Of a DNA stretch of 64,000 nt, positions 1 through 54,300 are shown piece after piece. Numbering within the stretch: the stretch's first letter is position 1; each line of letters opens with the position of its first letter. Both the position numbers and the translations under genes were made by a program. The stretch lies in assembly GCA_028289375.1 (NCBI GenBank), contig JANQQK010000039.1, positions 80,842-144,841 on the forward strand, written 5' to 3'. The notes beneath the pieces were generated by a model that saw only the letters and a list, made by a program, of their open reading frames with translations, was not told the DNA's origin and did not search any database. The stretch is from Phycisphaerae bacterium. Lineage in GTDB: Bacteria > Planctomycetota > Phycisphaerae > UBA1845.

Positions 1-19
1 TGTCTGCCGAACCACCACG

Positions 20-1750
20 GTGGCGGCTGGGATGTTCGCAGCCGTCGTGCTCGTAGACCGATTGTATGCTTTTGATTGGCCGCTGGGGATTGTGGCCGCT
101 GGTCTTGGCGGGCTGTCGCTGATCGTGTCGGTGATCTGGGCGATCGCGACGCGGATCGATACGTACGGGGCTGCGGCTGCGTTGGACAACGCAGCCAATC
201 TGCGCGAGCGCATCAGCAGCGGGTTGTATTGCAAGGAATCGAAGGATCCGTTCGCCGGGGCTGTCGTCTCGGACGCGGAGACCATCAGTCGCAACCTGAC
301 GGTTGGCCAGCATTTACGGTATCGGTTTCCTCAGGCATTTTCGGGGATGGCGGTGACGGTGGTGCTGGCGTGCGGGTTGATGCTGTTGCCGGCGGGGATG
401 CTCGTGGGCGAAGAGACGCCGGACGGTCAGGATGTCGAGAACATCCAGCGCACCACGACGATCGTCAAGAAGCACGCTCAGCAGCTCAAGTCCGTCGCGC
501 GGACCAATCCGGAACTGGCCAAGAAGCTGGACGAGCTTGAAGCGTCGGCGAACCTGCCCGATCCAAATCTGAAGAAGCCGATGGACTTCCGGCGCAACGC
601 GATCAAGAAACTGGACGCCATTCAGGACGTTCTGAAAGAGGAGCAAAAGAGCGAGCGGTTCGAGCAGGCCAAGGAATTCAAGCGGATGATGCGTGGCCTG
701 AATCCGGACAAGTCGGACGAGAGCGAGACGTCGAAGCTGAGCAATTCGCTGGCGAAGGGTGATTTCAAGGCGGCGCTCAAGCAACTCGAGAAGCTCAAGA
801 AGCAGTTGGAGGAAAACGCCGGCGAGAAAAATCAGGAGCAGCTCAAGAACCTCGAGATGCAACTGGATAAGTTGGCCGACCAGATCAAGAAACTCTCAGA
901 GAATCAGAATCTCAAGCAGGATTTGCAAAAGGCGGGCCTGTCGAAGGAAGACGCCGAGAAGATGATGAAGAACATGACAGCCCAGGACATGCAGAAGCTC
1001 AAGGAAGCGCTTCAGAAGAAGGGGCTGAATCAGAAGGAAGTCGAGAAACAGTCGAAGCAGTTGCAGAGCAAGTGCAAGGCCTGCAATCAGGGTGGTGCGT
1101 TGTCGGATGCGTTGAAGCAGGCTGCCAAGGCAGCGGGTGCCGGCCAGGCGGGCAAGGGCGGCAAGGGCTTGGGTGACGCAGGGCAGATGTTGTCGGAAAT
1201 GGAAATGCTCGAGCAGGAGATGAACGACATCGAAGCCGGCATATCGCAACTGCAGGATAGCAAGAACCAACTGAGCGATGCCAATCAGAAGCAAGGCAAT
1301 CAGAAGTGCGGCTCGTGCAAGGGATCGGGACGCCAGGGCAACAAGCCCTGTGGATCGTGCAACGGGCGTGGCAACGGCGGCATGGGGCCGAACATGCAGA
1401 ACGGTCGTGGCGGCATCGCACCGGAGCAGGCGACGCTGACGGGTTTTCAGAAACATCGCCAGAAGGTTAAGAACCACAAAGGCTCGATCATCGGGCAGTT
1501 CCTCGTCGACGGTCCTCAGGAAAAAGGCGAGGTGTCGTCCGAGGTGAAGGAAGTCATCATTTCGGCCGAGCGTGATGCCGCGGACGCGGTCAATCGCAAG
1601 CGGATTCCGCGTAAGTATCAGGACGCAGTGCGGAAGTTCTATTCTGACTTGCAGCGCAAGGCGGGCGTCACCGATGAGGACAAGGCCGCTGCCGAGGAGT
1701 CTGAGGACGGCGGTGCGTCGGACACCGAGTCCGATGGTGGCGACGAATAA
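20..1750 (+). CDS. membrane-anchored coiled-coil protein with DnaJ-like CxxCxGxG zinc-finger pair (possibly 5' truncated by window edge)
   Basis: No in-frame stop between nt 2 and the GTG at 20, so the ORF may start upstream of the window. Hydrophobic helices at the N-terminus (AAVVLVDRLYAF..., GIVAAGLGGLSLIVSVIWAIA, GMAVTVVLACGLMLLPAG). Long K/E/Q-rich heptad-like middle region. CKAC plus tandem CGSCKGSG...CGSCNGRG at nt 1307-1372. 3-nt gap to the next gene. Confidence 0.6.
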   Translation: MAAGMFAAVVLVDRLYAFDWPLGIVAAGLGGLSLIVSVIWAIATRIDTYGAAAALDNAANLRERISSGLYCKESKDPFAGAVVSDAETISRNLTVGQHLRYRFPQAFSGMAVTVVLACGLMLLPAGMLVGEETPDGQDVENIQRTTTIVKKHAQQLKSVARTNPELAKKLDELEASANLPDPNLKKPMDFRRNAIKKLDAIQDVLKEEQKSERFEQAKEFKRMMRGLNPDKSDESETSKLSNSLAKGDFKAALKQLEKLKKQLEENAGEKNQEQLKNLEMQLDKLADQIKKLSENQNLKQDLQKAGLSKEDAEKMMKNMTAQDMQKLKEALQKKGLNQKEVEKQSKQLQSKCKACNQGGALSDALKQAAKAAGAGQAGKGGKGLGDAGQMLSEMEMLEQEMNDIEAGISQLQDSKNQLSDANQKQGNQKCGSCKGSGRQGNKPCGSCNGRGNGGMGPNMQNGRGGIAPEQATLTGFQKHRQKVKNHKGSIIGQFLVDGPQEKGEVSSEVKEVIISAERDAADAVNRKRIPRKYQDAVRKFYSDLQRKAGVTDEDKAAAEESEDGGASDTESDGGDE

Positions 1751-1753
1751 GGC

Positions 1754-2776
1754 ATGCCGCTGACACGCCGCCGTTTGCGATTCTCCATTTCGTTTCATGC
1801 GTGTGCGAGTGTGTGCTGGTTGGTGGTCGGCTGCGCCGAGAGCGCCGACCAGCCGGTCGTCTATTGCAGCGTCGATGAGACATTTGGCTTGCAGGTGATG
1901 GCGGCGTTCGAGGATGCGACGGGGATCACGCCGCGCGTCGTGTACGACTCCGAAGCGGGCAAGACGACGGGGCTGATCAACCGCATCCGTGCCGAGGGGG
2001 ATCGACCTCGGGCCGACGTTCTGTTCTCCAGCGAAATCTTCAACACGATCCGGTTGGCCGACGAGGGATTTCTTGCGTCGTACAAGCCAGCCAGCGTCGC
2101 GGATGTACCGGCGGGTTTTCGCGATAAGCAAAATCGTTGGACGGCGATCGGGTTGCGGGCACGGGTGCTGGCGTTCGATCCGTCACGGGTGAAACGTGAG
2201 GAGCTTCCCCAAACGTGGGAAGCGCTTTCGCAGAAGAAGTGGGCGTCGCGACTTGCGATGGCAAATCCGTTGTTCGGCACGACGCGGGGACACGTCGCAG
2301 CCATGTTCGCGATGTGGGGGGATGAGCGGGCGACAACATATCTGAAGGCATTGAAATCAAACGGTGTGCAGATCGTCGATGGCAATTCGGCGGCTGTCCG
2401 TGCGGTGATCGATGGCCGGGCCGATTGGTGCATGACGGACACGGATGATGTGTGGGTCGCGCAGCGTGATGGTGCCAACATCGAGCTGATCTACCCCGAC
2501 ATGGGTCATGGCGACACGTTGTGGATTCCGACGACGGTGGCGTTGATCGCGAACAGCCGACGTGAGGAGGCGGGACAGAAGCTGGTGGATTTTCTGGCGT
2601 CTGGGGCGGTGGAGAAGCTGCTGGCGGAGTCGACCTCGCGGAACGTGCCGGTGCGGCCGGAGCTGCGCAGGCAGTTGAAGATGGACATTTCGATCAGTGA
2701 TCGCATGTCGTATGACGACATTGCGGACAAACTTGAATTGAGCGCTGCGACGGCCCGCGATATCCTGCTGAAGTGA
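1754..2776 (+). CDS. ABC transporter periplasmic solute-binding lipoprotein, Fe3+/family-1 type (AfuA/FbpA-like)
   Basis: Lipobox WLVVGCAE. VVYCSVDETF...AFEDATGITPRVVYDSEAGKTTGLINRIRAEG...ADVLFSSE is typical of iron(III)-type binding proteins. Its stop overlaps the permease start. Confidence 0.75.
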   Translation: MPLTRRRLRFSISFHACASVCWLVVGCAESADQPVVYCSVDETFGLQVMAAFEDATGITPRVVYDSEAGKTTGLINRIRAEGDRPRADVLFSSEIFNTIRLADEGFLASYKPASVADVPAGFRDKQNRWTAIGLRARVLAFDPSRVKREELPQTWEALSQKKWASRLAMANPLFGTTRGHVAAMFAMWGDERATTYLKALKSNGVQIVDGNSAAVRAVIDGRADWCMTDTDDVWVAQRDGANIELIYPDMGHGDTLWIPTTVALIANSRREEAGQKLVDFLASGAVEKLLAESTSRNVPVRPELRRQLKMDISISDRMSYDDIADKLELSAATARDILLK

Positions 2777-4272
2777 TGGGTCGATGGTTGTGGCAGGTGG
2801 TGCGGGCGGTTGGTGTGGCCGCGCTGGTGGCGACGCTGGTGGTGCCGGTCGCGGCACTTTTGGTGCGAGCGCTGCGGTGTGACGCGGGGACACTTCTGTC
2901 CGTATTCAGTGAACGGTATTGGATGCTGTTGGCCAAGACGGTCGGGCTTGCGTCGGGGGCGGCGGTGCTGGCGATGGTGCTGGGATTGCCAGCGGCATTC
3001 GTCGTCGGTGGGCGACGGTCGACGCTGGTGACGGGGTTGGTCGTGCTGCCGCTGATGATGCCGGCGATGGTGATGGTGTTCGGTTGGCAGCGATTCTGGG
3101 GACCGTACACGCCGGGGCTTGAGGGGTGGGCGCCGTGGTTGCGGGCGATGTGGTGCTGGGCATGCTGGTATTGGCCTGTGGTGGCGTTGATGGTTGGGGC
3201 AGGTTGGGCGCGCGGGGGGCGGGCGGCGTATGAAGCGGCGGTGCTGGAAACAACGGGCTGGGTCGCGTTTCGGCGGGCGGCGTTGCCGGGAGTGGCGCGA
3301 CATGCGGGGATGGCGGCGCTGGTGCTGATGGCGGTGATGGTCGGGGAATACACCGTGCCGCATGCGAACGGGGTGATCGTGCTGTCGGCGGAGTTGATGG
3401 CGATTGCCGAGGGCGAGCCGTTCGACGCTGCGGGTGGGAAGATCGCGGTTGGATGCGTGGTGCCGCTTGTTATGGTCGCGGCGATCGGGTGGGTGGTGAC
3501 GCGGTTGTGGGGACGGGATACGACGCGGCGTGATGATGTCGGCGCGTTGCAGGTTGGGCGCTGGCGAGCGACGATCGTGGTGGCGATTGTCGCGGTGACG
3601 GTCGGGGTGCCGACGGGGTTGCTGATGCTGAATCGCGATGTGCCGTCCTGGTTTCGCGAATTGATTGTCACGTATGGGTCTGAACTGGCGGGGACGTTTG
3701 GCGTGGCGGCGGCGACAGCGGTGGTGGTCATGTGCATCGGTGTCGCAGCCGTCAGTGTGCGTGGCACGCTCGCGATCCTGCTGGCGACGCTGGCGATGGG
3801 TGTATTGCCGGGCGCGTTGATCGGCGAGTCGATGCTGGCTGCATACCAGCGGATCGATGTCGTGTACAACCATTGGCCGATTCTGGTGCTGGGGCTGGTC
3901 GGGCGGTACGCGTGGGTCGGATGTCTGCTGTGCTGGCTGGCGATGCGGGCGACGGCGCGGGATCAGGTCGAGTCGGTGCGCCTTGAGGGGGCGACGTCGC
4001 GGGGGGAGGTCGTGCGGTCGCTGCTGGTCCATCAGTGGCCAACATTGGCGGGCGGTGCGTTTCTGGTGCTGGCGTTTGCATTGGCGGATGTCGACGTCGT
4101 GGCCATTGTGGCAGTACCGTCGCCGCGGATGATGGCTACAATTCTTGTTGAGAAGTTCCACCGGTTTGAAACGGGGATGATGGTGTCGATTGGGTTGACC
4201 ATGGTGTTGGCCATCGTGCCCGCGGTGGCGTTGTTGTCGATGGCGATGCGATACGGGAGGCGTCGTGCGTAG
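2773..4272 (+). CDS. ABC transporter permease, duplicated two-domain type (FbpB/AfuB-like)
   Basis: 499-aa polytopic hydrophobic protein. Two EAA-loop-like segments (YEAAVLETTGWVAFRRAALPG and ESVRLEGATSRGEVVRSLLVHQWP). Start (GTG 2773 or ATG 2776) overlaps the stop of the binding-protein gene. Confidence 0.7.
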   Translation: MMGRWLWQVVRAVGVAALVATLVVPVAALLVRALRCDAGTLLSVFSERYWMLLAKTVGLASGAAVLAMVLGLPAAFVVGGRRSTLVTGLVVLPLMMPAMVMVFGWQRFWGPYTPGLEGWAPWLRAMWCWACWYWPVVALMVGAGWARGGRAAYEAAVLETTGWVAFRRAALPGVARHAGMAALVLMAVMVGEYTVPHANGVIVLSAELMAIAEGEPFDAAGGKIAVGCVVPLVMVAAIGWVVTRLWGRDTTRRDDVGALQVGRWRATIVVAIVAVTVGVPTGLLMLNRDVPSWFRELIVTYGSELAGTFGVAAATAVVVMCIGVAAVSVRGTLAILLATLAMGVLPGALIGESMLAAYQRIDVVYNHWPILVLGLVGRYAWVGCLLCWLAMRATARDQVESVRLEGATSRGEVVRSLLVHQWPTLAGGAFLVLAFALADVDVVAIVAVPSPRMMATILVEKFHRFETGMMVSIGLTMVLAIVPAVALLSMAMRYGRRRA

Positions 4273-5167
4273 GGTTTGTGTCATACTGCTGCTGGGTTGT
4301 GTGTGTGGATGCGATCCGCCGCCGCTGACCGAGAACGGTGTCGTGAAGGTCTTTGGAACGGTCGGCATGGGAGAGGGTTCGTTCAGCTATCCGCGCGGAA
4401 TTGCACGCGCGGCGGATGGGTGTCTGTTCATTGTTGACAAGACGGCACGCGTGCAGCGTTTCAGCGCCGAGGGGGAATTCGAAACGCAATGGAACATGCC
4501 GGCCAAGAAATCGGGCAAACCGGTCGGGCTGACGGTGCATCCGGATGGCCGGGTGTTCGTGGCCGACACGCACTACCACCGCGTGATGGTGTATGACCGC
4601 GACGGCGGGGAGATCGCGCGGTTCGGTTCGGAGGGTGATGGGGACGGCCAATTTCGGCTGCCGACGGACGTGGCATTCGACGATGCCGGTTTCATTTACG
4701 TGGCTGAGTACAATGGCAACGACCGGGTCACAAAATGGAACGCGGATTACACGTTTCATTCGAGCCTGATCGACGGGCCGATCGACGGCGTGCCGATGGT
4801 GCGCCCGGCTGCTTTGCTGGTCGACGATGAGCGAACGCTGTGGGTGGCCGACGCTTGCAATCACCGGATACTGCGGTTCACGTTGGAGGGCGAACTGCTG
4901 AGTCAGTTCGGATCGATCGGGACCGAACCGGGTCAACTGCGCTATCCGTATGATATGGATATGAAAGACGGTATTCTGCTCATTTGTGAATATGGCAACA
5001 GCCGGCTTCAATGGTTTGACAAGGCCGGGAATTCGCTGGGCGTGTGGGGCAATGCAGGCCGCAGCATCGGCGAGCTTTACTCGCCATGGGGGGCGGCGTA
5101 TGGTTTGGATGGCATGATTTACGCGTTGGATTCGCAGAACAACCGCGTTCAAATGATCAAACGGTGA
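4265..5167 (+). CDS. NHL-repeat beta-propeller lipoprotein
   Basis: Lipobox LLLGCVCGC. Repeated NHL-type units (GSFSYPRGIARAADGCLFIVD, GQFRLPTDVAFDDAGFIYVAEYNGNDRV, GQLRYPYDMDMKDGILLICEYGNSRL, GELYSPWGAAYGLDGMIYALDSQNNRV). GTG start overlaps the permease stop by 8 nt. Confidence 0.7.
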   Translation: MRRVCVILLLGCVCGCDPPPLTENGVVKVFGTVGMGEGSFSYPRGIARAADGCLFIVDKTARVQRFSAEGEFETQWNMPAKKSGKPVGLTVHPDGRVFVADTHYHRVMVYDRDGGEIARFGSEGDGDGQFRLPTDVAFDDAGFIYVAEYNGNDRVTKWNADYTFHSSLIDGPIDGVPMVRPAALLVDDERTLWVADACNHRILRFTLEGELLSQFGSIGTEPGQLRYPYDMDMKDGILLICEYGNSRLQWFDKAGNSLGVWGNAGRSIGELYSPWGAAYGLDGMIYALDSQNNRVQMIKR

Positions 5168-8100
5168 CGACGTTGCTCGATCAGCTTCCATTCAGTTTTG
5201 AGAAACCGGAGTGGTTGTGGTTGGCGCTGCTGGTGCCCGTGCTGGTGGTAGCGTCCTACCGTGCGCTGGCTGGACTTGGTCCGGTGCGTCGGACGGCGTC
5301 CCTGCTGATCCGCTCGCTGGTGATTCTGGCGATCGTGGCGACGCTGGCGGAGATTCAGCAGGTCAAGCGGAATGAAGATCTGACGGTGATCTTCCTGATG
5401 GATCGCTCGCAGAGTGTGCGTGAGCAGGAGACGCGGCAGGAAAGCTACATGGAGGCGGCGTGCAAGGACATTCCGCCGAACGATCGCGTGGGCGTCATCG
5501 ATTTCGCCCGTCATGCTCACCTCGAACAGCTGCCCATGAAGGGCGGGTATTTTCTCGAACGCGGGCGACTGCCGGAAATGCCCAACCCGGATCGGACCGA
5601 CGTCGCGGGGGCAGTGCGCCTGGCGATGGCGATGTTTCCGCACGACACTGCCAAACGCGTCGTGCTCATGTCCGACGGCAATGACAACATGGGCGACCTG
5701 CTCGGTGAGGCGCAGCGTGCTGCCGGTGACGGCGTGACGATCGATGTTGTGCCCCTGTGGTACGAGCTGCATCGCGAGGTGTTCTTCGAGAAGATGGTCG
5801 CCCCTGCGTCAGCCGAGGTCGGCGAAATCGTGCCAATCCGCATGAATGTGCAGAGCAACACGGTGACAACCGGGCGGATCGAGATCTTCCACAACGGCAG
5901 CAAGCTCGACCTGCCCGATGAAATGGCGCGACGGCGACTCGAAGTCGGCAACAACTCGTTCGTGCTGAAACTACCCATCGAAGAGCCAGGCGTGCAGAAG
6001 TTCGAAGCCCGCTTCGTGCCGGACAACGACAATGCCGACGCAATCGTCGAGAACAACCGTGCGTCGGGGTTCACGTTCGTTTCGGGCAAGGGGAAGGTGG
6101 CCCTTCTGACGATGGACCCGTCGGCGGATCGGATTCTTGTTGATGCGCTGACCGATGAGAACATTCAGGTGCGGATGATCGATCTGGGACTGGAAGTGCC
6201 GGACCTTGCCGGTCTTCTCGATTACTCCGCCATCGTCCTGTCCAACGTGCCGGCCAACGTATTCACCGAGCAGCAGCAGGAATCGTTGCGAGACTACGTG
6301 GAGACGACGGGCGGCGGGCTGATCACCACGGGTGGCGACGAAGCCTACGGGGCTGGCGGCTGGATCGGTACGCCACTGGCGGACGTGCTGCCGGTCGAAT
6401 TGGAACTCAAGCACAAGAAGATCATCCCGCGCGGGGCGCTCGTGCTGGTGATGCACAGTTGCGAATTGCCGCGTGGCAACTACTGGGGCAAGCTCGTCGC
6501 CAAAAAGAGCGTCGATACGATCAGTTCACGCGATTACATCGGTGCGTTGGCGTATGCCGGCGGCGCATCGTGGGAGGTACCGCTGCAGTTCGCGACGAAC
6601 AAGCAGGGCATCAAGAACAAGATCGACCGCATGGTCATCGGTGACATGCCCGATTTCGATCCGACGCTGCGATTGGCAGTGAAGGGCTTGACCCAAACCG
6701 ACGCCGTCCAGCGGCACATCATTCTGATCAGCGATGGCGACGCAGCCGCCCCCAGCGGCAAGGTCATGCAGGATCTGATCGATTCAAACATCACCTGCAG
6801 CACGATCGCCATTGGTTACGGCTATCACGTGCAGGAATTCACGCTGCGCGACATCGCCAACAAGACAGGCGGGCGTTTTTATCCGGTGCGCAATCCGCGT
6901 GCGTTGCCGCAAATTTTTGTGAAGGAGTCGAAGGTCGTCCGGCGACCACTGATCGTCGACGAGCCGTTCACACCGCAGGTGTCGTTCGCCCAGAGCGAGA
7001 TCATCGCCGGGATTGCCGACGAAGGCGGCGTTCCACCATTGGGCGGACTGGTGCTCACCACGCCGAAGGACCTCGCCCTGGTGTCGCTGGTGCGATCGAC
7101 CGAGGACGGAACCGATCCGGTGCTCGTCCATTGGCAGCGCGGGTTGGGGCGTGTCGTGTCGTTTACGAGCGGATACTGGCCCCAGTGGGGGACGGATTGG
7201 ACTGCGTGGCCGAAGTATTCCAAGCTATGGGCACAGATCGTGCGCTGGACGATGCGTCAGGAAGCGCCGGCCAACTTCGACGTGATCACGCGGACCGAGG
7301 GCAATCAGGGTCGCATCATCATCGAAGCCCTCGACAAGGACGCCGACTACCTCAACTTTCTGAACATGCAGGCCAAGGTGATCGACCCGAAGCTCGGCCC
7401 GCGCGATCTGCGGTTCACGCAAACCGGAGCCGGTCGCTACGAAGCGGTCTTCGATACCGAACACACCGGCCAATACATCGCGAGCATCGGCATCATTCAG
7501 GAAGGCGACTACCTCGGCTCGATTCATACCGGCATCTCGATGCCCTTCTCGCCCGAGCTTCGCGAGATGTCGACCAACGAAGCCCTGCTTCGCGAGGTGG
7601 TGACCACGACCGGGGGTCGCTGGCTGGACAGCGGTGCGGAGACCGATGATGTCTTTTCCCACGACCTGCCGCCAACGGTATCCAAGCAGCCTGTGTGGGA
7701 CTGGACATTGGCGTGGATCCTGTTGCCGCTGTTTCTGCTCGATGTTTCCGTCCGACGGCTGGCGAGCTGGCTGGCGTTGTCGATCGTGGTCGAACTGCTG
7801 ATCATCGTCGTGCTGCTCTTCGGCGCCGGGGTGATCTACACGAACTGGTTCGGCGTGCTGGGCGTGTTCATCTTCGCCGAGTTGGTTGGCTGGTCCATTC
7901 GCTATCAATACATCCGCCCCCTGTTCGACTGGATGACGCACTCGGTCACGGCGCTCGGACAGGCCGGCGAACGCAGCACGCAGACGCTGGGTCAACTGAA
8001 AGACGTCCGCGAGCGCGGCAAGGCCGACGAATCGCAACAGCAGGCAGCCCAACGACCGGTCGAGTCGACGACGCCGAAAACCGCGCGCTTCGACGCCGGC

Positions 8101-8304
8101 GATCCGACGCCGGGATCGTCGGTTGGCAACCTGACCGAAGCCATGGGCGGCGCGAAGGCAACGGATTCCGGAGAGAAACCGAAACAAAAATCCGGCGAAC
8201 AGCGTGAACCGGGCGAAACCGAGGAAGCCCACACGTCGCGGTTGCTGCGCGCCAAGCGTCGCGCCCGTGGCAAAATCGACGACGACAAAGACAAGCAAGG
8301 GTAA
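5164..8304 (+). CDS. BatA-N-terminal-domain / double VWA-domain membrane protein (1046 aa)
   Basis: GTG at 5164 overlaps the NHL gene stop (GTGA). BatA-like N-terminus LPFSFEKPEWLWLALLVPVLVVASYRAL. VWA 1 has the MIDAS motif DRSQS and VVLMSDGNDN. A second VWA-like module carries HIILISDGDAA...GGRFYPV. C-terminal TM helices are followed by a K/E/Q-rich tail. The upstream part of the 5044 ORF lies inside the NHL gene and is discounted. Confidence 0.75.
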   Translation: MTTLLDQLPFSFEKPEWLWLALLVPVLVVASYRALAGLGPVRRTASLLIRSLVILAIVATLAEIQQVKRNEDLTVIFLMDRSQSVREQETRQESYMEAACKDIPPNDRVGVIDFARHAHLEQLPMKGGYFLERGRLPEMPNPDRTDVAGAVRLAMAMFPHDTAKRVVLMSDGNDNMGDLLGEAQRAAGDGVTIDVVPLWYELHREVFFEKMVAPASAEVGEIVPIRMNVQSNTVTTGRIEIFHNGSKLDLPDEMARRRLEVGNNSFVLKLPIEEPGVQKFEARFVPDNDNADAIVENNRASGFTFVSGKGKVALLTMDPSADRILVDALTDENIQVRMIDLGLEVPDLAGLLDYSAIVLSNVPANVFTEQQQESLRDYVETTGGGLITTGGDEAYGAGGWIGTPLADVLPVELELKHKKIIPRGALVLVMHSCELPRGNYWGKLVAKKSVDTISSRDYIGALAYAGGASWEVPLQFATNKQGIKNKIDRMVIGDMPDFDPTLRLAVKGLTQTDAVQRHIILISDGDAAAPSGKVMQDLIDSNITCSTIAIGYGYHVQEFTLRDIANKTGGRFYPVRNPRALPQIFVKESKVVRRPLIVDEPFTPQVSFAQSEIIAGIADEGGVPPLGGLVLTTPKDLALVSLVRSTEDGTDPVLVHWQRGLGRVVSFTSGYWPQWGTDWTAWPKYSKLWAQIVRWTMRQEAPANFDVITRTEGNQGRIIIEALDKDADYLNFLNMQAKVIDPKLGPRDLRFTQTGAGRYEAVFDTEHTGQYIASIGIIQEGDYLGSIHTGISMPFSPELREMSTNEALLREVVTTTGGRWLDSGAETDDVFSHDLPPTVSKQPVWDWTLAWILLPLFLLDVSVRRLASWLALSIVVELLIIVVLLFGAGVIYTNWFGVLGVFIFAELVGWSIRYQYIRPLFDWMTHSVTALGQAGERSTQTLGQLKDVRERGKADESQQQAAQRPVESTTPKTARFDAGDPTPGSSVGNLTEAMGGAKATDSGEKPKQKSGEQREPGETEEAHTSRLLRAKRRARGKIDDDKDKQG

Positions 8305-8363
8305 GAAACCGCAATCGACGATCGCCACCGATTTCAGGACTGCGATCAAACGGAGCAACCAAC

Positions 8364-9383
<1,020 letters not shown>

Positions 9384-10277
9384 ATGGCCTCCACCAGCGA
9401 CACAACCCTGCTCGATCCGGAGTTCATGACCAAGCTCAACCGCCTTGAGCTGATCAGCCGGAAGATCTTCGCGGGGAAGGTGCGCGGCGAGCGACGATCC
9501 AAGCGTCGCGGCGAATCGGTCGAGTTCGCCGACTTCCGCAACTACACCGTCGGCGATGACCTGCGCTTTCTCGACTGGAACATCTACGCCCGTCTCGATC
9601 GCCTGTTTCTCAAGCTGTTCCTCGAGGAGGAAGACTTGCTCGTCAGCGTGATCTTCGACACATCCAGCAGCATGGACTTCGGCGATCCGCACAAAGGCCA
9701 CTACGCCCGGCAACTCGCCACCGCCATGGCCTACATCGGCATGGTCAATCAGGATCGGGTCAGTCTCTATCCATACGCCGACGGCATCGTCGACGAAATG
9801 AAGGGCGTCCGCGGCAAGCGCATGACACCGCGGATGATCGATTTCGTTTCCCGTTGCGACTATCGCCCTGCCAGCGATCTGACCGCTGCCTGCAGACAAT
9901 ACGCCATTCGTCATCCGCAGCGCGGCATCGTCATCGTCATCAGCGACTTCCTGGACAAGGGCGGATTCGAGGCAGGCCTGAAGTTTCTGCTCGGTCGCGA
10001 TCTCGACATCTACGTCATCCATGTGCTCGCACCGCAGGAAACCGAACCGCCCGTCACCGGCGATTTGCAACTGTTCGACATCGAGGACGAGGACATCGCC
10101 GAAGTGACCGTCAGCCGCGCACTGATCAACCGCTACAAACACAATCTGGAGGCCTACTGCAGCCACGTCCGCGACTATTGCGCCCGTCGCGGTATCGCGT
10201 ACCTGTTCACCACGACCGACGTGCCGTTCGATCAACTGATCCTCAACTACCTCCGCCGCCGAGGGCTTGTGCGCTGA
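9384..10277 (+). CDS. DUF58 domain protein (MoxR partner)
   Basis: RGESVEFADFRNYTVGDDLRFLDWN signature of DUF58. Starts directly after the MoxR stop codon. Confidence 0.8.
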   Translation: MASTSDTTLLDPEFMTKLNRLELISRKIFAGKVRGERRSKRRGESVEFADFRNYTVGDDLRFLDWNIYARLDRLFLKLFLEEEDLLVSVIFDTSSSMDFGDPHKGHYARQLATAMAYIGMVNQDRVSLYPYADGIVDEMKGVRGKRMTPRMIDFVSRCDYRPASDLTAACRQYAIRHPQRGIVIVISDFLDKGGFEAGLKFLLGRDLDIYVIHVLAPQETEPPVTGDLQLFDIEDEDIAEVTVSRALINRYKHNLEAYCSHVRDYCARRGIAYLFTTTDVPFDQLILNYLRRRGLVR

Positions 10278-10278
10278 C

Positions 10279-12327
10279 ATGAATTTCCTCACCCCGACAA
10301 CGGTGGCGATTGCGGCGGCCCTTTCGATTCCGCCGCTTGTCGCGCTCTATTTTCTCAAGCTCAAACGGCAGCGCTATGCGATTTCGTCGACGCTGCTGTG
10401 GAAAAAGGCCATCGAGGATCTGCACGTCAATTCCCCGTTTCAGCGGTTGCGGACGAGTCTGCTGCTGCTGCTGCAACTGCTCGTCCTGGCATTGGCGGCA
10501 CTTGCCTTGGGGCAACCCATGATGGCGATCGAGCGCGAACGCGAGAAGTCGCTCATCCTCATCATCGACCAATCAGCATCGATGGCTGTCGTCGAGGAAG
10601 ACCAACTCACCCGTCTCGACATCGCCAAACGCGAAGCCGCACGCGTCGTCGACAACATGGACGAGAACAGCCGCGCCATGGTCATCGCGTTCTGCGACCG
10701 TGCCACCATGGTCTCCTCCTTCGATACCGACAAGGACGCCCTCAAACGCAAAATCGACTCCATCGACCAGACCGACAGCACCTCCATGCTCGCAGAAGCC
10801 ATCAACCTCGCCGAAGCCTATTCGCAGAACATCATCATCGGCGGTGACAAGGCCGGCACCGACGTCATTCCCGAAGCGTCAGCCACCGCCTCGGTCATGC
10901 TCTTTACCGACGGCCGCGTGGCCGACGCCGACGAGGTATCGCCACAACGTCTCGACCTGACCAACATGGAAGTCGTCAAGATCGGGCAGCGATCCGACAA
11001 CGTCGGCATCGTCACGATGAACGCCATGCGCAACTACGAAAAGCCTGAATTCCTGCAGGTGTTCGCAAGCGTCCGCAATTTCTCCGATCAGCCCGCGTCC
11101 GTCGACGCCACGCTCTACTTCGACGGCGAACACATGGACGTGCAATCCGTAGACCTGTCTCCCGGTATCGCTCCCCCTTCCGACGACGAGAACGCCCAAC
11201 CAACAGACAACGGCAACGACGTCGTCCCTCCGGGGTCAATGGCGTCCATCGCGTTTGATGAGATCGAATTTGCCTCCGCCGGCGTCGTCGAAATCCGCAT
11301 CAATGCTCAGGACGCGCTCGCCAGCGACAACCGCGCCTTCGCAATCGTCCCCCCATCGCGGCGTGTGAGCATACTGCTCGTCACCGAAGGCCGCTGGCAA
11401 CTGACCGACCTGATGTCGATCCTCAACGTCGATGCCCAAATCATGACGCCGTTCGAGTACGAGAACGCCGACGACGAATTGCTCGCCGACGGCACGCGAT
11501 CTCGCTTCGATGTCGTCATCATCGAAAATCACCGTACCGACCGCCTGTCGACCGGCAACTACTTTTTCATCGGACAAGCCCCGATCATGGAAGGCGTGCG
11601 TGATCTCGGCATCGTCGACGACGAGGTCTTCATCGACTGGGACGACACGCACCCCATCCTCCGCCACACCGCCGTCGGCGTCATCGACATCTTCGAACAC
11701 TGGCGACGACTACGCCTGCCCTCCGAAGCCACCATCCTCATCGAAGGCAGTTCGCCCGATTCCAATGTGCTCTCGCTTCTGTCACGCGATGGCAGCCGAT
11801 TTCTGATCTGCGCCTTCGGACTCGTCGTGGAAAACGATGAAGGTGAGCAGGTGCTCAACACCGCCTGGATGCTCGATCCCGGCTTCATCATGTTCATGAT
11901 GGACGCGATCGATTTCCTGTCGTCGAGCATTTCCACGCAATCACTCGCCAGCCTCGGCCCCGGCGAACCGCAGGTCGTCCCCGTGCCACCGGACACCGAC
12001 TACGTCACCGTTCTGCGACCAGACAACAAGACCGAGCGCCTGCCCACCGCCGGCACCCAGCGCGTCACCTACGCGCGCACGCGTCGTACCGGAACCTACA
12101 CGTTCTCACCCGGCATCGACGGCAAGGACCAGATCGCCGTCAACCTCTTCAACGACAACGAAAGTCTCGTTCGCCCCACAACGAGCTTCGCCATCGGCTC
12201 AAGCCCCATCGCCTCCACCGAAGGCGCCAACCTCGTCGACGAGCCACTCTGGCCCTGGTTTGTGATGGGATTGCTTCTGATCTGTCTGCTGGAGTGGGTG
12301 ATTTACAACAAACGCGTGTTCGTCTGA
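10279..12327 (+). CDS. BatA-N-terminal-domain / VWA-domain membrane protein
   Basis: ATG at 10279, 1 nt after the DUF58 stop. N-terminus MNFLTPTTVAIAAALSIPPLVALYFLKLKRQ. VWA with MIDAS motif DQSAS (LILIIDQSASM). C-terminal TM helix LWPWFVMGLLLICLLEWVIY. Confidence 0.75.
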   Translation: MNFLTPTTVAIAAALSIPPLVALYFLKLKRQRYAISSTLLWKKAIEDLHVNSPFQRLRTSLLLLLQLLVLALAALALGQPMMAIEREREKSLILIIDQSASMAVVEEDQLTRLDIAKREAARVVDNMDENSRAMVIAFCDRATMVSSFDTDKDALKRKIDSIDQTDSTSMLAEAINLAEAYSQNIIIGGDKAGTDVIPEASATASVMLFTDGRVADADEVSPQRLDLTNMEVVKIGQRSDNVGIVTMNAMRNYEKPEFLQVFASVRNFSDQPASVDATLYFDGEHMDVQSVDLSPGIAPPSDDENAQPTDNGNDVVPPGSMASIAFDEIEFASAGVVEIRINAQDALASDNRAFAIVPPSRRVSILLVTEGRWQLTDLMSILNVDAQIMTPFEYENADDELLADGTRSRFDVVIIENHRTDRLSTGNYFFIGQAPIMEGVRDLGIVDDEVFIDWDDTHPILRHTAVGVIDIFEHWRRLRLPSEATILIEGSSPDSNVLSLLSRDGSRFLICAFGLVVENDEGEQVLNTAWMLDPGFIMFMMDAIDFLSSSISTQSLASLGPGEPQVVPVPPDTDYVTVLRPDNKTERLPTAGTQRVTYARTRRTGTYTFSPGIDGKDQIAVNLFNDNESLVRPTTSFAIGSSPIASTEGANLVDEPLWPWFVMGLLLICLLEWVIYNKRVFV

Positions 12328-13049
12328 TCGGCAGGCGTGGTCGCCCGCATCCCACCGCTGAAATGCAATTCGTTCATGGTTCGGCGTACACCAGTCATGC
12401 GCGGGTGAATCCGCAGCGCTTCGCGATAGCTGCCGATCGCACGATCAACGTCGCCGAGTTGGGCGTATGCATGCCCCATACCCGCCAACGCACCGAAATG
12501 GCAGGCGTTCAGTCCTACCGCCCTCTTCGCGTCCGCCAATGCGCCCACGTAGTCATCGGCCAAGTACCGCGCCATCGAGCGTTGGTTGTACGCTTCGGCG
12601 CACTCCGGATCACGCTCGATGATATCGCTGAGAAGAATGGCCGCCTCGGGATGATCCCCTTCACTCATTTTGCGCATGGCATCAAACAACTTGTCGCGCG
12701 CCGCAACATCCACCGAATCAAACCAAATGCCCCAAAGGGCGTCTTCGGCGGCGTCGGCCACTTCGGCGTCGTCATCTCCCAACGCCGAGACGAGCGGAAA
12801 AACCGACGGCGTATCGCCCCAGACACCGAGGCAATACGCCGCCACCTTCGCCACTTCGCGGTCGCCCGACGCGAGCAGTTCCGCCAACGCGTCGACCGAC
12901 CAATCCCAATGCAGATACGCGCGCAATCCGTCGCGATCATCATGCGCGAGGTACGCACGCGTCTCCGCGAGTAGATCGTACCCCGTCAATTCCATTTCCG
13001 TGCACGTTGCCATGTCCACAGTTGTCGTTCCGTTAAGCTGCCCAAACAT
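12303..13049 (-). CDS. HEAT-like / TPR repeat protein
   Basis: HEAT-like segment (REVAKVAAYCLGVWGDTPSVFPLVSALGDDDAEVADAAEDALWGIW) followed by TPR units (AEAYNQRSMARYLADDYVGALADAKRAVGLN, ALAGMGHAYAQLGDVDRAIGSYREALRIHP). Its 3' end overlaps the convergent gene by 25 nt. Confidence 0.6.
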   Translation of the reverse strand: MFGQLNGTTTVDMATCTEMELTGYDLLAETRAYLAHDDRDGLRAYLHWDWSVDALAELLASGDREVAKVAAYCLGVWGDTPSVFPLVSALGDDDAEVADAAEDALWGIWFDSVDVAARDKLFDAMRKMSEGDHPEAAILLSDIIERDPECAEAYNQRSMARYLADDYVGALADAKRAVGLNACHFGALAGMGHAYAQLGDVDRAIGSYREALRIHPRMTGVRRTMNELHFSGGMRATTPADQTNTRLL

Positions 13050-13207
13050 GTGACGACAGCGGCAACTCGCTGACGCCTGCCCCGGATGAGTATATGATCG
13101 TAGGACCGCCGGCGCGGCCAGGTCAAATCGAAATCAGATCGGAAACCGCGGAATCAGATGCATTATCTGACCTGCACAGCAACCGACGACAAGTACCGAC
13201 AAACACC

Positions 13208-13819
13208 ATGACCCCACAAACATCGGCCAACAACGTCCTTGCGGTTCTGCCGATTTCACGCGGGCGTGCCATCAACCGCGCACTGCTGCGGCTGATCCCC
13301 GCCGTTGTGATGCTGATGATCGCATCAAACGTCTTTTCAGGCCTGAACCTGACGCCCACCGCCGTCTCGAACCGCATCACCGACTACAGCAAATTGATTC
13401 TGATCTTGCCATTGGCGCTTGGCGGATTGCTTATCGGACTGAACGGTGCGCGATGGCTGATCACCGCGTGTTGGCCTGGCGAACTTGGCGTGGTTGCCTC
13501 AACGAAGGGTATCACGTTGCACCTTGGGGCGATGGCCTCACCGCACTACCCCATCGACGCGCTGACCATTCGCTACCTCTTCGAAATGGACACCGACGAA
13601 CTCGACGAGGATCTTATCTACGAAGCCCTGCAACCACCCGAGAAGCAGATGGCCGAGATGCTCCCGCGGATTTATGTCACCGGCGAACGTGAACCCCTCA
13701 ACAACCAGCTCATTCAGCTCTGTTCGGGAAACGAAGCGCAGTTGGCCGCTGCGTTGAAACCATTCGTCGACTTTCATCGCCCCAACATCGAGTGGGACGA
13801 TGATGACGACGACGAATGA
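13208..13819 (+). CDS. hypothetical membrane protein with poly-acidic C-terminus
   Basis: ATG at 13208 is preferred over the alternative start at 13094. Two hydrophobic helices (LLRLIPAVVMLMIASNVFSGL, LILILPLALGGLLIGLNGARWLI). Ends in EWDDDDDDE. No family recognised. Confidence 0.45.
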   Translation: MTPQTSANNVLAVLPISRGRAINRALLRLIPAVVMLMIASNVFSGLNLTPTAVSNRITDYSKLILILPLALGGLLIGLNGARWLITACWPGELGVVASTKGITLHLGAMASPHYPIDALTIRYLFEMDTDELDEDLIYEALQPPEKQMAEMLPRIYVTGEREPLNNQLIQLCSGNEAQLAAALKPFVDFHRPNIEWDDDDDDE

Positions 13820-13843: not shown

Positions 13844-16800
13844 CTACCGCTTACCGTGACATTGCTTGTACTTCTTGCCGCTGCCGCACGGGCAAGGATC
13901 ATTACGACCGACCTTCGGTTCATCGCGGCGAATCGTCTCGGTCTTCTGCGGCGCATTCTGCGCCTTCATCGCCGCCTGCTCATCCTGCGACGCTGCCGCG
14001 AATGCGCCGCCGGTTGCATCGGCGTGCTGGTAATTCACCGGCGCCTGAGGACCGGTCGTCACGGTCCCGGACGTTCCAGCCGGCCCTCCGCCCTGCGGAC
14101 CGCCCGCCCGAAGTTTGAAAATGATGTCGGTCACGCGTGACCGGATCAGCGTCCACATCTGATCGAAGAACTCACGACCTTCGATCGCATACTGACTCTG
14201 CGGGTGCGTCTGGTCACCGCCCATAGGCCGCTGCATGATCGCCGTCTTCAACCGGTCCATTTCCCACAGATGGTCCTTCCACGACTGATCGTAAATCCGC
14301 AGCAGGATGTAACGCTCCAACTGCGTCAACTCATACCGCAGCATCAACTGCCCGGCCTCAATCAGCACCGTTCGTGGATCCTCCCCATCCTGCAACTTCT
14401 TTGCATGATCAGCATGAAACGCTCGCTGATACCGCTTGCGTGCCCACTCGATCAGCTCATCGCCCTCATGCTCGGACAACGCCTGATCGATCTCGGACTC
14501 CAGCTTGCCGCCTTCCATGTAGTCGCGCTGAAGCTGCATGATTTGGTTCGTGATGTCCTCGATCGCACGATTCTGCAACTCCTCGACCTTGAGGTTTACG
14601 TTGTATTTGACGTTCGCCCAACGACAGACCACTTCGCAAGCCTGAGCATTATCCGAACCGGTCCCGCCAAATGCCTGTCCAATCGCATTCTCGACAGGCA
14701 TCCGCAACTCGCGATCGCGATACTTGGCCCGAACACGCTCACCGACCAGTTGAATCGCGTCTTCCGGAGAGATGTCACTCACTTCAGACGTATCAAGCTC
14801 GATGTCGAACTTTCCGCGTGCCCACTCCGCCAACTGCGATGGACCATGATCCGAAGACGCAAAGGCCTCTACGCCGCCGAGATCAACCTCGTCGTAGAAC
14901 GTCTCCGCGGCTTCGGTCAGGGCATCCTCGATGTCGCGCGGGTCCATCTTGCGAAGCTGATTCTGCGTAAACGAGAACTGATACGCCTTCTGTGCCCAGC
15001 GAATCAATCCGCCAACGTCCCACGCCGACGATTCCTCGTCCGCATCGATGAACTCCACCAGCGACGTGCGAATCGACTCGCGGGCCTCATCCTTGGCAAC
15101 CTTGCGGATGCGTTCCTCGGTGCGTTCCAGATCATCGACGTAGATGTCATCCACACCCACCGAGACGTCGAACTGCGCACGTACCCAGTTTGCAATGCAG
15201 TGCGCGCGATAGTCCGAACCCAGAAAGTCCGAAACGCTTTCGTCAATCGCATCGTCAATGATCTCGAAGATGATCGGAGCAATATCCGCATCGGCCAACA
15301 CTTCCTGACGCTTGCTGTAGAAGTCCTTGCGCTGGAAGTCCATCGGCTCGTCCCATTCGAGCAGATGCTTGCGCGTCGAGAAGTTGCGTTCCTCAACCTT
15401 ACGCTGCGCCCGTTCGATGCCCTTGCTCAGCCGCTTGTCCTCAAGACTCGTGCCGTCGGTAAAACCGAGCTTCTCCATCGTCTTGATCATCCAGTCCGGC
15501 ATGAACAGCTTGATGAGATCATCTTCGAGCGAGATGAAGAATCGGGACGAACCAGGGTCACCCTGTCGGCCGGCACGACCGCGAAGCTGATTGTCGATAC
15601 GCCGCGCCTCATGACGTTCCGTACCGATGATGTGCAATCCGCATGGCGAATTCAGCGCACACACCTTTCGGCCAATCTCCGGGAATCGCGGATCGAGCTT
15701 CGGCTTGTAGCAATGCGCACAATTCGTGGCCGGGTCGTATTCCTCGCATTTGATGCAGCACTTCGTCGAACCGATCGGGTAGAGATCATTGGCACGCCCC
15801 TCTTCGGTGACCTTGCAGTTCTCATACACCACGCCCTGTTCGAGTTTGATATCCGTACCGCGACCAGCCATGTTCGTCGCGATGGTGACGTTGCCAATGG
15901 GCGACTTGTCAGCCCCGCGTGTTGGCAGTTGCCGATGCCCCGCCTTAGCGACGATCTCGGCCTCTCGCGCATGGTTCTTGGCGTTCAACACCTCGTGATC
16001 AATGCCGTACCGCTTCTCCAGCAGCGCGGAGATCTTTTCAGACTTTTCAACGCTCGTTGTACCCACAAGCACCGGTCGCCCCTTCGCAAGATCGCCCATG
16101 GCTTCATCGTAGGTCTCGAGCATGAAGTTGATGACCTTCTGATCGCCCTCTTCGGCGTTGTTGAACTGACGGATCGCCTCGTCGACGCGCGACGTGTCCT
16201 GCCCGAGGTTCGACATCACTGGCTTGAGCTTGTTGAACAAGTCGAACATCAGGAACGGATCGCGAGGCCGCCCCTTCCGGCGCATCTCGTGAATCTCGTC
16301 GACGATGGCGTTGTACTTCTGATCACCATTGCGGAACATCTTGTCGTTGTGGTCGACGCGGTTGACCGGGCGATTCGTCGGAATCTGAATCACTTCCAGC
16401 TTGTATATCTTCAGAAACTCCTCCGACTCGGTCGCCGCCGTCCCGGTCATCCCCGACAGATATGTGTACAGCTTGAAGAAGTTCTGAATCGTGATCGTCG
16501 CGAGCGTCTGCGTCTCCTGTTTGATCGGGACATTTTCCTTTGCCTCGACGGCTTGGTGCAGTCCGTCCGACCACTGCCGACCAATCATCAGTCGCCCCGT
16601 GTTCTCGTCGACGATGATCACCTCGCGATTCTGCACGACGTAGTCCTTGTCGCGCTCGTAGACGATGTGCGCCCGCAGCGACTGCTCGATCAGGTGCGGA
16701 CGATCCATGTTCGTCCCGACATAGAAACTGCCAATCCCCGCCTCATCCTGCGCAATCGCAACGCCCTCGTGCGTCAGCGAAACGGCCTTGCGATCCTGCT

Positions 16801-17752
16801 GCACCACGTAGCACTGTTTGTGGCCGATGCCTTCCGCCTCTTCCTCGCCGACCATGTTCGGGTCGATCCCGAATCGCCGAACGGCATCCATCGCCTTTGG
16901 ATTCTGCGTCACCTGTTCCGGCAGATCCTCTCCCCACTCTGCCAGCCGAGCCTTCGTCTCCTTGTTGAACTCGGCCTGCTTGCGCACGAGAAGCCGTGCC
17001 AGGTTGTCGGCCCACTTGTACCGATTCGGATCATCCACGGCTGGTCCGGAGATGATCAGCGGCGTTCGCGCCTCGTCGATCAGCGTCGAGTCCACCTCGT
17101 CGACGATCGCAAAATCAAGCCGGCCCTGCACCTGCTCGACATGCCGCATCTTCATGTTGTCGCGCAGGTAGTCGAACCCGAACTCGCTTGTCGTCCCATA
17201 CGTAATGTCGCACGCATATTCCTTCGCCCGAATGCCCTCACGACCACCCGGGTCGACCTGAGACTGAATGTAGCCCACGGTCACACCCAGCGGTTCCATG
17301 ACCGCCGCGGCAAACTCGGCATCGCGCTTTACCAGATAGTCATTGACCGTGACGATGTGCACCTTGTCACCCATCACGACGCGCAGATACGCAGCAAGGT
17401 GACAGACAATCGACTTGCCTTCACCCGTCCGCATCTCCGCCACCGAACCGTCGTACAGCACCTTGCCGCCGATCAGCTGGCAGTTGAAGTGCCGATGCTC
17501 TTTCGCACGACGCGACGCTTCGCGCATCACCGCAAACGCCTCAGGCAGCAGCGCATCAGCCGACTCGCCATTCTTGGCGCGCTGTTTGAACTCGTCCGTT
17601 TTCGCGCGGAGCTGTTCGTTGGACAACGCCCTCGTCTGCTCCTCGATCGCCTCCACGGAGTCTGCCACCAACCGCAGTCTCTTGAGCAGACGGTCATTCC
17701 GCGACCCGAAGCACTTGTCCAACACCTTGCCGATAACCGATTGCAGTGACAT
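13844..17752 (-). CDS. secA: preprotein translocase ATPase SecA (expanded, 1302 aa)
   Basis: N-terminus [16 protein letters not shown]. Walker [72 protein letters not shown]-terminal zinc finger [15 protein letters not shown]. Confidence 0.95.
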
Positions 17753-53416: not shown

Positions 53417-53535
53417 GGAATGAATCCTTGATCTTGGGGTCGATGTTTTCCGGTTGTCAGCCGATTACTTTTATACGCGAACGACGGGAAAAGCACTAGA
53501 ATCACCCGCCCGTGGGCAACCGGAACCGAGCCGAC

Positions 53536-54300
53536 ATGGCCATGATCGAAGTTGACAATCTGACGAAGGAATTTCACGACAGTGATGGCCGCGCGTTTCG
53601 CGCGGTGGACGGGTTGTCGTTTCAGGTCGAGGCGGGGCAGATTTATGGTCTGCTCGGTCCGAACGGTGCGGGCAAGACGACGTCACTGCGGATGCTCAGC
53701 GCGTTGATGACACCATCATCGGGACGCATCACGGTGAATGGCTACACCGTTGGCGAGCACGTCTTCGAAATCAAACAGTCGATCGGATTTCTGACGGCCA
53801 ACACGGGACTGTATCAGCGGTTGTCGCCGCGCGACGTGCTGCGCTATTTCGGCGAATTGCATGGATTCGACAAACAGCAGGCACGCGACCGTTGCGAGGT
53901 GTTGATCCGCGAGATGGATATCACTGATTTCTCAGATCAACGGTGCGGCACGCTCTCGACAGGACAAAAGCAACGCACAAACATCGCAAGGGCGCTGATC
54001 GCCGATCCGCCGGTCCTGATCATGGATGAGCCGACGCTTGGTCTTGATGTGATGAGCAACCGCGTGATTCTCGATTTCATCATCGCCCAACGCGAAGCGG
54101 GCAAAGCGATCATCCTCTCCACGCACTACCTCGACGAGGCGGAAACGATGTGCGACATGATCGGCCTATTGCATCGCGGACGGATCGTGGCTGAAGGAAC
54201 GATCGATGAGCTTCGTGAGCGTGCAGATGCGGTGCGGTTGTCGAGCATCTTCCTGAAACTGATTCACGCCCATGATCCGCTGGAGGGCGTGCTTCCATGA
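53536..54300 (+). CDS. ABC transporter ATP-binding protein (ABC-2/NatA-like)
   Basis: Walker A GLLGPNGAGKTT. Signature LSTGQKQR. Walker B VLIMDEPTLGLD. Its stop overlaps the next start (ATGA). Confidence 0.9.
   Translation: MAMIEVDNLTKEFHDSDGRAFRAVDGLSFQVEAGQIYGLLGPNGAGKTTSLRMLSALMTPSSGRITVNGYTVGEHVFEIKQSIGFLTANTGLYQRLSPRDVLRYFGELHGFDKQQARDRCEVLIREMDITDFSDQRCGTLSTGQKQRTNIARALIADPPVLIMDEPTLGLDVMSNRVILDFIIAQREAGKAIILSTHYLDEAETMCDMIGLLHRGRIVAEGTIDELRERADAVRLSSIFLKLIHAHDPLEGVLP

Follow-up and report, generated by a model that had tools for sequence, protein, structure and literature searches.

A Phycisphaerae version of the Bat-type MoxR/DUF58/BatA operon that carries genes for a substrate-binding protein and an ABC permease

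Operons of the Bat type, which join a MoxR AAA+ ATPase to a DUF58 protein and to proteins with VWA domains, belong to the most widespread gene clusters of bacteria for which no function is known, even after 25 years of study. In Bacteroidota and Spirochaetota they are arranged as MoxR-DUF58-BatA-BatB, with BatC, BatD or BatE in some, and related MoxR-DUF58-VWA operons are present in Rhizobium, Francisella and Mycobacterium. The function of Bat-type MoxR systems is undefined in all of them (PMC3557215). Here we describe the Phycisphaerae (Planctomycetota) version of this operon, found in a 64,000-nt stretch of the genome of a Phycisphaerae bacterium (contig JANQQK010000039.1, positions 80,842 to 144,841; hereafter the window). 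Its core consists of cytoplasmic MoxR and DUF58 proteins, three periplasm-facing membrane proteins (a coiled-coil protein, a large BatA-like protein with two VWA domains and a GATase1_like region, here called VWAGAT, and BatA) and an NHL lipoprotein. In about half of the lineages, including this one, the genes for a substrate-binding protein (SBP) and a permease of an ATP-binding cassette (ABC) importer lie between the coiled-coil and NHL genes. The full explanation that we favor, a Bat/MoxR operon variant with an integrated half-importer, a non-ferric ligand and an ATPase encoded elsewhere, has in our estimate a probability of about one half.

Comparison with the described Bat operons reveals a shared center and a distinct periphery. 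The AAA_3 type of MoxR, the DUF58 protein and the BatA architecture of a double transmembrane (TM) segment followed by a VWA domain are the same, whereas the order is reversed, the large VWA gene lying 5′ of moxR. The additional components are a coiled-coil protein with zinc-finger-like motifs, the NHL lipoprotein, the double-VWA protein with its GATase1_like region, a 241-aa membrane protein and, in about half of the lineages, the SBP and permease. Neither the coiled-coil nor the 241-aa protein gave a Pfam or NCBIfam match to partners of the BatC, BatD or BatE type, and the only TPR gene is convergent, with a homolog detected at this position in one other locus. Full-text literature searches gave no account of MoxR/Bat operons linked to ABC or NHL genes, and the first-pass annotation, made from the sequence of the window, was likewise not aware of one.

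Other MoxR systems are more distant. CoxD/CoxE, NorQ/NorD, CbbQ/CbbO and RavA/ViaA share the pairing of a MoxR-class AAA+ ATPase with a VWA adaptor bearing a metal ion-dependent adhesion site (MIDAS). The logic of such chaperone and adaptor pairs was reportedly set out by Snider and Houry in 2006. It is regarded as established (PMC3495828). The first-pass annotation had extended the analogy to the cofactor insertion carried out by CoxD, NorQ and CbbQ, which we do not retain: the ATPase here is of the AAA_3 MoxR-proper type with a DUF58 partner, unlike those proteins, and no client metalloenzyme gene was found in or beside the operon in any inspected locus. The ternary conflict systems of MoxR, vWA and β-propeller proteins, said to have been described by Kaur et al. 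in 2020, have the β-propeller in common with this locus, where it takes the form of a periplasmic NHL lipoprotein. Assignment to such a conflict or defense system, as defined by the published families (PMC7159879), was rejected, given no PADLOC match, a bpMoxR score of 44 bits against 213 for AAA_3, no effectors, no mobile distribution and vertical inheritance.

Gene string and protein architecture

Eight genes of the forward strand make up the string, and each was placed by direct reading of its junctions from the sequence. It opens with the coiled-coil gene (1..1750 of the window, 605 aa, with a start 67 nt before the window), whose TAA at 1748-1750 lies 3 nt from the ATG at 1754 of the SBP lipoprotein gene (1754..2776, 340 aa). 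The latter shares a GTGA at 2773-2776 with the gene for a predicted fused two-domain permease of the FbpB type (2773..4272), although with the ATG at 2776 as the permease start the two genes would overlap by 1 nt instead. The permease TAG at 4270-4272 and the GTG at 4265 of the 300-aa NHL lipoprotein gene (4265..5167) produce an 8-nt overlap, and a second GTGA at 5164-5167 leads into the 1046-aa VWAGAT gene (5164..8304). A 59-nt gap containing a GGAG ribosome-binding site (8305..8363) precedes moxR (8364..9383, 339 aa), whose TAG abuts the ATG of the DUF58 gene (9384..10277) at 9383/9384, and a single nucleotide at 10278 separates the DUF58 gene from the batA-type gene (10279..12327, 682 aa, stop at 12325-12327). 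The first-pass annotation had reported seven coupled genes; its genes, overlaps and tiny gaps are all present where it placed them, and the count becomes eight with the coiled-coil gene that begins outside the window.

The GTG at 5164 was taken as the start of VWAGAT in preference to that of the public NCBI gene model, which begins 19 codons further 3′ (skipping 5164-5220) and yields 1027 aa. Residues 9-18 of the longer product are kept in orthologs, with P9, W17 and L18 conserved; the longer form, and with it the GTGA overlap with the NHL gene, is preferred because these residues are lost in the shorter model.

On the basis of spacing and synteny the string appears operon-like. Among the other same-strand junctions of the window, about 8 of 20 measure at most 60 nt, by a rough count by eye from an uncurated list of open reading frames (ORFs), and the longest runs elsewhere comprise 2-4 junctions, so that the run of seven found here is the window maximum. 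A search for internal terminators, which the first-pass annotation had named as possible counterevidence, returned no terminator-like site in any intergenic gap of the string. The 59-nt gap before moxR has no significant or conserved structure (folding z -0.28; alignment), no Rfam family was matched, and a scan for internal promoters gave no signal with a consensus that does not cover planctomycete promoters. The promoter of the string should be in the 177-nt divergent intergenic region that lies outside the window, 5′ of the coiled-coil gene. A GATAAT sequence in the intergenic region upstream of the string was not taken as a Fur box.

The domain content is matched by Pfam and NCBIfam searches, including the MoxR/DUF58/BatA/VWA module that had been proposed. 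MoxR matches AAA_3 (PF07726, E 1.6e-63) and AAA_lid_2 (E 4.8e-13), has the Walker A motif GVPGLGKT and is 70-91% identical across related loci. The DUF58 protein (PF01882, E 3.8e-34), a VWA-like partner of MoxR for which no TM segment is predicted, has the canonical DxSxS motif as DTSSS. The BatA-type protein (BatA, PF07584, E 6.8e-11; VWA_2, E 6.4e-14) has an N-terminal double TM segment, a periplasmic VWA domain with the MIDAS motif DQSAS and a C-terminal TM segment. VWAGAT matches VWA_2 (E 1.4e-17), VWA (E 7e-14) and GATase1_like (E 2e-10), and its domains are ordered as an N-terminal double TM segment, VWA1 with a canonical DxSxS, a β-sandwich, a Rossmann-like domain, VWA2, the GATase1_like region, a further β-sandwich, C-terminal TM helices and a charged tail. 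Its AlphaFold2 (AF2) model (pLDDT 66, pTM 0.37) contains long TM helices, a disordered stretch after VWA2 and a disordered charged tail; Foldseek returned generic VWA matches together with BatB (3ibs) and the B. fragilis aerotolerance-related protein 4jdu. In VWA2 the MIDAS motif is replaced by H431-S-C433-E (6454-6465), which is invariant in 26 homologs, and the MIDAS-type Asp is retained as D524. This replacement suggests a different, perhaps softer, metal or a non-metal role for VWA2.

The NHL protein (NHL, E 1.5e-28) was correctly described as a lipoprotein, having a signal peptide and a Cys-rich lipobox region, and it is predicted to be a periplasmic six-bladed β-propeller whose six blade motifs are conserved in 51 orthologs. 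The coiled-coil protein has three predicted TM segments and a long periplasmic coiled coil. Two DnaJ-type CxxCxGxG motifs occupy residues 459-480 of its 605 (1307-1372), in a part predicted to be periplasmic; 23 of 36 orthologs have both motifs and 2 more have one, and the rest have lost them. A weak match to DnaJ_CXXCXGXG (E 0.007) is the only Pfam match of this protein. By hydropathy and the positive-inside rule all products other than MoxR and DUF58 are estimated to be membrane or periplasmic, with the SBP and NHL proteins as lipoproteins and with both BatA-like VWA domains and the coiled-coil domain facing the periplasm. This estimate agrees with the envelope setting proposed by the first-pass annotation, and it is matched by experiment for Borrelia BB0173, whose VWA domain is periplasmic (PMC5700661).

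Synteny, inheritance and flanking genes

Conservation of the gene order provides the main evidence that the SBP and permease genes belong to this operon. VWAGAT has more than 500 relatives in GTDB genomes, and the survey took the best 80 as species-level loci with 10-kb flanks, plus loci found via the permease; all eight string proteins were mapped onto these loci by tblastn. The best 80, with identities of 45-82%, come from metagenome-assembled genomes of Phycisphaerae or of other unclassified Planctomycetota. On L001, a contig identical to that of the window, the coiled-coil gene spans 7158-8975. In the 84 related Phycisphaerae loci compared, the NHL gene always lies immediately 5′ of the VWAGAT gene, in 78 of the 78 loci with upstream sequence, with an overlap of 4 nt in 42. 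After exclusion of 12 loci that end too early to show the genes 5′ of NHL, 66 are informative. The permease gene is just 5′ of NHL in 36 of these, 26 of them with the SBP gene as well, and the 4-nt overlap of SBP and permease recurs in 18 of the 26; the coiled-coil gene is directly 5′ of NHL in 24, and neither arrangement is seen in 6. The coiled-coil homolog thus stands 5′ of the SBP gene or, where SBP and permease are absent, directly 5′ of NHL. Gaps of more than 300 nt occur at only 2 of the 36 permease-NHL junctions, and at least 7 loci have permease-NHL without an adjacent SBP or coiled-coil gene.

The stable pairs that emerge are coiled-coil/SBP, SBP/permease, permease/NHL and NHL/VWAGAT, and the order breaks at several other junctions among the surveyed genomes. 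In six loci (L014, L020, L023, L030, L032 and L034) MoxR-DUF58-BatA is not downstream, yet SBP-permease-NHL-VWAGAT remain together. A metagenome scan, queried with permeases of the basal clade only, the full permease alignment having no conserved stretch, added 23 loci; all 15 usable ones are permease-NHL-VWAGAT, and they continue into MoxR-DUF58-BatA where the contig is long enough. In a neighbor-joining tree of VWAGAT the loci with a permease gene are spread over several deep clades, the basal ones among them, and one large clade is without the permease. Pairwise distances of the permease follow those of VWAGAT (Spearman rho 0.87), as do those of the NHL protein (0.86), and the permease is the faster evolving, with a mean p-distance of 0.68 against 0.45 for its neighbors. 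Because the order is conserved and the permease has diverged together with the core, the linkage of SBP and permease to the core is ancestral and vertically inherited, with several later losses. The first-pass annotation had proposed that absence of the linkage from relatives would point to chance juxtaposition, which the survey excludes. At least 24 of the 66 informative genomes have the whole core without the pair, and SBP and permease are consequently viewed as an accessory part, alongside a core of coiled-coil, NHL, VWAGAT, MoxR, DUF58 and BatA.

The operon region may extend further at its 3′ end. A gene for a 241-aa membrane protein (13094..13819, forward strand) has same-strand homologs 3′ of batA in eight loci, directly after batA in seven (L015, L043, L044, L047, L055, L056 and L063) and after a TPR/HEAT gene in L011, and its product, which gave no Pfam, NCBIfam or PADLOC match, is probably a ninth operon member. 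In the window the two genes are likewise separated by a TPR/HEAT gene, which runs convergently (12303-13049, minus strand) and at its 3′ end overlaps batA by 25 nt. Divergent from the coiled-coil gene, and close to the window on its upstream side, is a gene of about 630 aa (L001:5082-6980, minus strand) that is kept at this position in 21 loci, with and without SBP and permease. Its product, a possible thiol-redox partner in the periplasm, combines CarboxypepD_reg repeats with a thioredoxin-fold domain (AhpC-TSA/Redoxin, weak SCO1/SenC). The operon region is followed closely by the gene for a 1302-aa SecA homolog (13844-17752, minus strand) with long insertions and, at its C-terminus, a zinc-binding [14 protein letters not shown] motif.

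Substrate-binding protein, permease and ATPase

The closest described relatives of the SBP and permease are the ferric transporters FbpABC, HitABC and SfuABC (TC 3.A.1.10; T. thermophilus FbpBC, 9j4r; FbpA/HitA, 6iwf, 1d9v and 7li0). The SBP family and the fused permease are the same, and the 4-nt overlap of SBP and permease is like that of typical importer operons. In contrast to these systems the ferric ligands are absent, no fbpC-type ATPase gene was found in the operon in about 110 loci, and the pair is embedded in a MoxR/VWA operon.

The SBP is a lipoprotein (lipobox LVVGC) and a member of the FbpA/PhnS/PotD cluster, matching SBP_bac_6 (E 2e-20) and also SBP_bac_11, SBP_bac_8 and SBP_bac_1. 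Its best PDB match is HitA/FbpA, which the single sequence reaches with E 3e-24 and a profile with 1e-34. The positions of FbpA Tyr195 and Tyr196 are occupied by D231 and D232, invariant among 24 orthologs; that of His9 by D41, kept in at least 90% of them; and that of Glu57 by S93, which is Ser in most and Gly or Asn in a few, next to an invariant E94. The region of the class-III Tyr141 reads GTT. By alignment, then, the SBP has neither the Tyr-Tyr pair nor the accompanying His and Glu or third Tyr that bind ferric iron. Iron use by FbpA requires its tyrosines, as mutagenesis has established, and an FbpA-like protein that binds no iron is known in AfuA (PMC10182148). The designation of the importer as Fe3+-type or iron-type in the first-pass annotation is therefore apt for the family by sequence, but it probably does not extend to the ligand, the ferric positions having been replaced by Asp-Asp, Asp and Ser.

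The same replacement characterizes a much larger group. A search of 1.84 billion cluster representatives returned 481 clusters (50% identity) at E <= 1e-30, and the motif T-D-(T/S/N/A)-D-D stands at the Tyr-Tyr site in 139 of the 150 best cluster representatives (P0130-P0279). AfuA (hexose phosphates), P5PA (pyridoxal phosphate), PhnS (2-aminoethylphosphonate) and PotD/PotF (polyamines) belong to the same SBP cluster, but the SBP scores far below their curated cutoffs, and the T-D-T-D-D proteins form a separate large uncharacterized subfamily. The best NCBIfam matches of the SBP are PhnS models (E 3e-25, 88 bits against a cutoff of 310), a segment of its C-lobe is closest to PotD, and none of 10 sampled members of the subfamily reached an NCBIfam cutoff, the nearest models being 2-aminoethylphosphonate-binding proteins. 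Members of this subfamily are often annotated in their sources as "iron(III) transport system substrate-binding protein." That an iron-type annotation can mislead in the FbpA-like family is known from precedents of the AfuA type (PMC10182148, PMC8427247), and the iron(III) label is probably wrong for the whole subfamily.

Identification of the permease required the use of its orthologs. The window protein alone gave no Pfam match (even at E = 10) and no NCBIfam or PDB sequence match, and only 8 proteins came back from an initial homolog search. Combined into a profile, 32 orthologs match the Thermus protein 9j4r_A ("Iron ABC transporter permease") over its full length with E 1.3e-18, and PF00528 (BPD_transp_1) is matched by 13 of the 32. 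The AF2 model, built with an 8-sequence input (pLDDT 72, pTM 0.72), has as its top Foldseek match, and only strong full-length one, T. thermophilus FbpB in FbpBC (9j4r_A, E 4.6e-11, TM-score 0.63), followed by half-length permeases of type-I importers. About 12 TM segments are predicted, and both EAA loops are recognizable in the ortholog alignment, the second being canonical (E-x-A-R-x-D-G-A). By profile and predicted fold the protein is thus a fused ABC importer permease of the FbpB type.

As the first-pass annotation had noted for the window, the importer lacks an adjacent ATPase: no ORF with Walker A and LSGGQ-type motifs lies beside the SBP and permease genes in any of 87 + 23 loci. The only ABC ATPase of the window (53512-54300, forward strand, 262 aa) has a 4-nt overlap with the gene for a 715-aa polytopic membrane protein, and this pair (53512-56444) is ABC-2-type exporter-like and unrelated to the string. 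ABC components are commonly scattered in these genomes. Distant relatives of the permease in L109 and L110 are orphans in unrelated contexts, and an orphan ABC_tran+TOBE_2 ATPase gene is found in L116 (4781-5866, minus strand), 4 kb from a coiled-coil/SBP pair.

Such pairs occur in several other Phycisphaerales (L111-L114 and L116), where the SBP gene directly follows and overlaps the coiled-coil gene (for example at L111:8251-11098, L113:7875-11041 and L116:8193-11050). The coiled-coil homolog is full-length and 28% identical (E 2e-50), and the SBP shares 40% identity with that of the window. Within 10 kb of these pairs there is no gene for a permease, an NHL protein or a VWA protein; the neighbors include Wzy_C (O-antigen ligase-like) genes and, in L111-L114, also a lipid A acyltransferase gene. 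The SBP subfamily is found in yet another context in L115.

Competing explanations and implications

In the explanation favored here the SBP and permease would form a functional half of an ABC importer of type I, since neither the fold nor the two EAA coupling loops have been lost, and the ATPase subunit would be encoded elsewhere in the genome, as the usual scattering of ABC genes in this group leads us to expect. The ligand of the SBP would be non-ferric: the binding positions, which are Asp, Ser/Glu, Asp and Asp beside a Thr/Lys/Arg-rich anion loop, would suit a divalent cation of the hard kind, or else a small molecule that is cationic or zwitterionic, for example an amino-phosphonate or a phospho-amine. 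The importer would take up, or report on, a ligand of the periplasm to which the activity of the NHL/VWA complex is linked. MoxR and DUF58 would spend ATP on remodeling the cytoplasmic loops or tails of the two BatA-like proteins, which in turn would control their periplasmic MIDAS-bearing VWA domains. Several observations weigh against this explanation. Its mechanistic part is an analogy, since the function of Bat-type MoxR proteins is undefined everywhere, and operon status is read from spacing and synteny. The ligand is guessed from residue identities, and the loci scanned have no ATPase gene adjacent to the pair. The usual Gly of the first EAA loop of the permease is replaced and its Glu is lost in the basal clade, which together with the faster evolution of this protein could mean relaxed or altered function. 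Finally, the pair appears dispensable for core function, because so many genomes keep the core without it.

The last point is also an argument for regarding the pair as an ordinary importer half that was inserted into the operon of an early ancestor and has been kept by inertia or shared regulation, with no functional tie to its neighbors. The breadth of the SBP subfamily and its presence in other contexts, the related permeases orphaned far from Bat genes and the breaks in gene order at several other junctions would all fit this proposal. Inertia accounts poorly for a position that persists in loci where identity has fallen to 45% in the VWA protein and to 25% in the permease, for the conserved stop/start overlaps and for the rarity of long permease-NHL gaps, or for the finding that permease-NHL-VWAGAT stay united even where MoxR-DUF58-BatA are elsewhere and the SBP stays with the coiled-coil gene where the permease is not adjacent. 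We consider mere passage in the operon unlikely, while giving it serious weight. That the SBP, with the coiled-coil protein, and the permease have instead been reused as a sensor or scaffold, with MoxR as the sole source of energy, is a more doubtful proposal. It draws on the missing ATPase gene in about 110 loci, the separate existence of coiled-coil/SBP pairs and of permease-NHL pairs, and a permease that evolves so fast that the window copy falls below Pfam detection and whose first EAA loop is degenerate. Nevertheless, the permease retains the whole FbpB fold and the second EAA loop, the group does contain orphan ATPase genes of the importer type, as in L116, and we know of no precedent for an AAA+ ATPase driving an ABC permease.

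The first-pass annotation had proposed a metal-linked envelope function, in which a Fe3+-type importer serves a MoxR/VWA chaperone for cofactor insertion or for maturation of an envelope complex. The envelope setting is in line with the topology estimate, and several features are compatible with a metal: among solved structures both ABC parts are closest to ferric transporters, an invariant His-x-Cys replaces the Mg2+ MIDAS serines in VWA2, the coiled-coil protein has zinc-finger-like CxxCxGxG motifs, and the remodeled all-carboxylate site of the SBP could hold a divalent metal. A metal link of some kind may therefore exist. A Fur-family gene (L007:7301-7963, minus strand) is divergent from, and about 1.6 kb upstream of, permease-NHL-VWAGAT in L007, but in no other inspected gene table. 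Against iron specificity stands the Tyr pair of all characterized ferric-binding proteins, which is Asp-Asp in every ortholog and in nearly all representatives of the subfamily, and against a chaperone for cofactors stand the type of the ATPase and the want of a candidate metalloenzyme gene at any locus. This combination makes the proposal, in our judgment, improbable. In the boldest reading, the SBP and permease would be integral parts of the MoxR/VWA machine. Jointly with the NHL and coiled-coil proteins they would bind a ligand in the periplasm, perhaps a divalent metal or a phospho-amine from the envelope, and gate, or be gated by, VWA remodeling. We regard this too as a long shot. If true, a Bat-type MoxR system would for the first time have a concrete ligand and input, and an ABC permease would have been recruited by a machine that is not of the ABC kind.

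A consequence of these results is that a large set of "iron(III) transport" annotations, those of the T-D-T-D-D subfamily, can be flagged as probably wrong. For the Bat-type systems the finding represents a tractable entry point, a soluble SBP with a conserved site, rather than a mechanism. The accessory SBP, permease and NHL genes are fixed in position across an entire class of Planctomycetota and so offer experimental handles on the operon, and the ligand and partners of the SBP could yield the first input signal or substrate for a Bat-type system.

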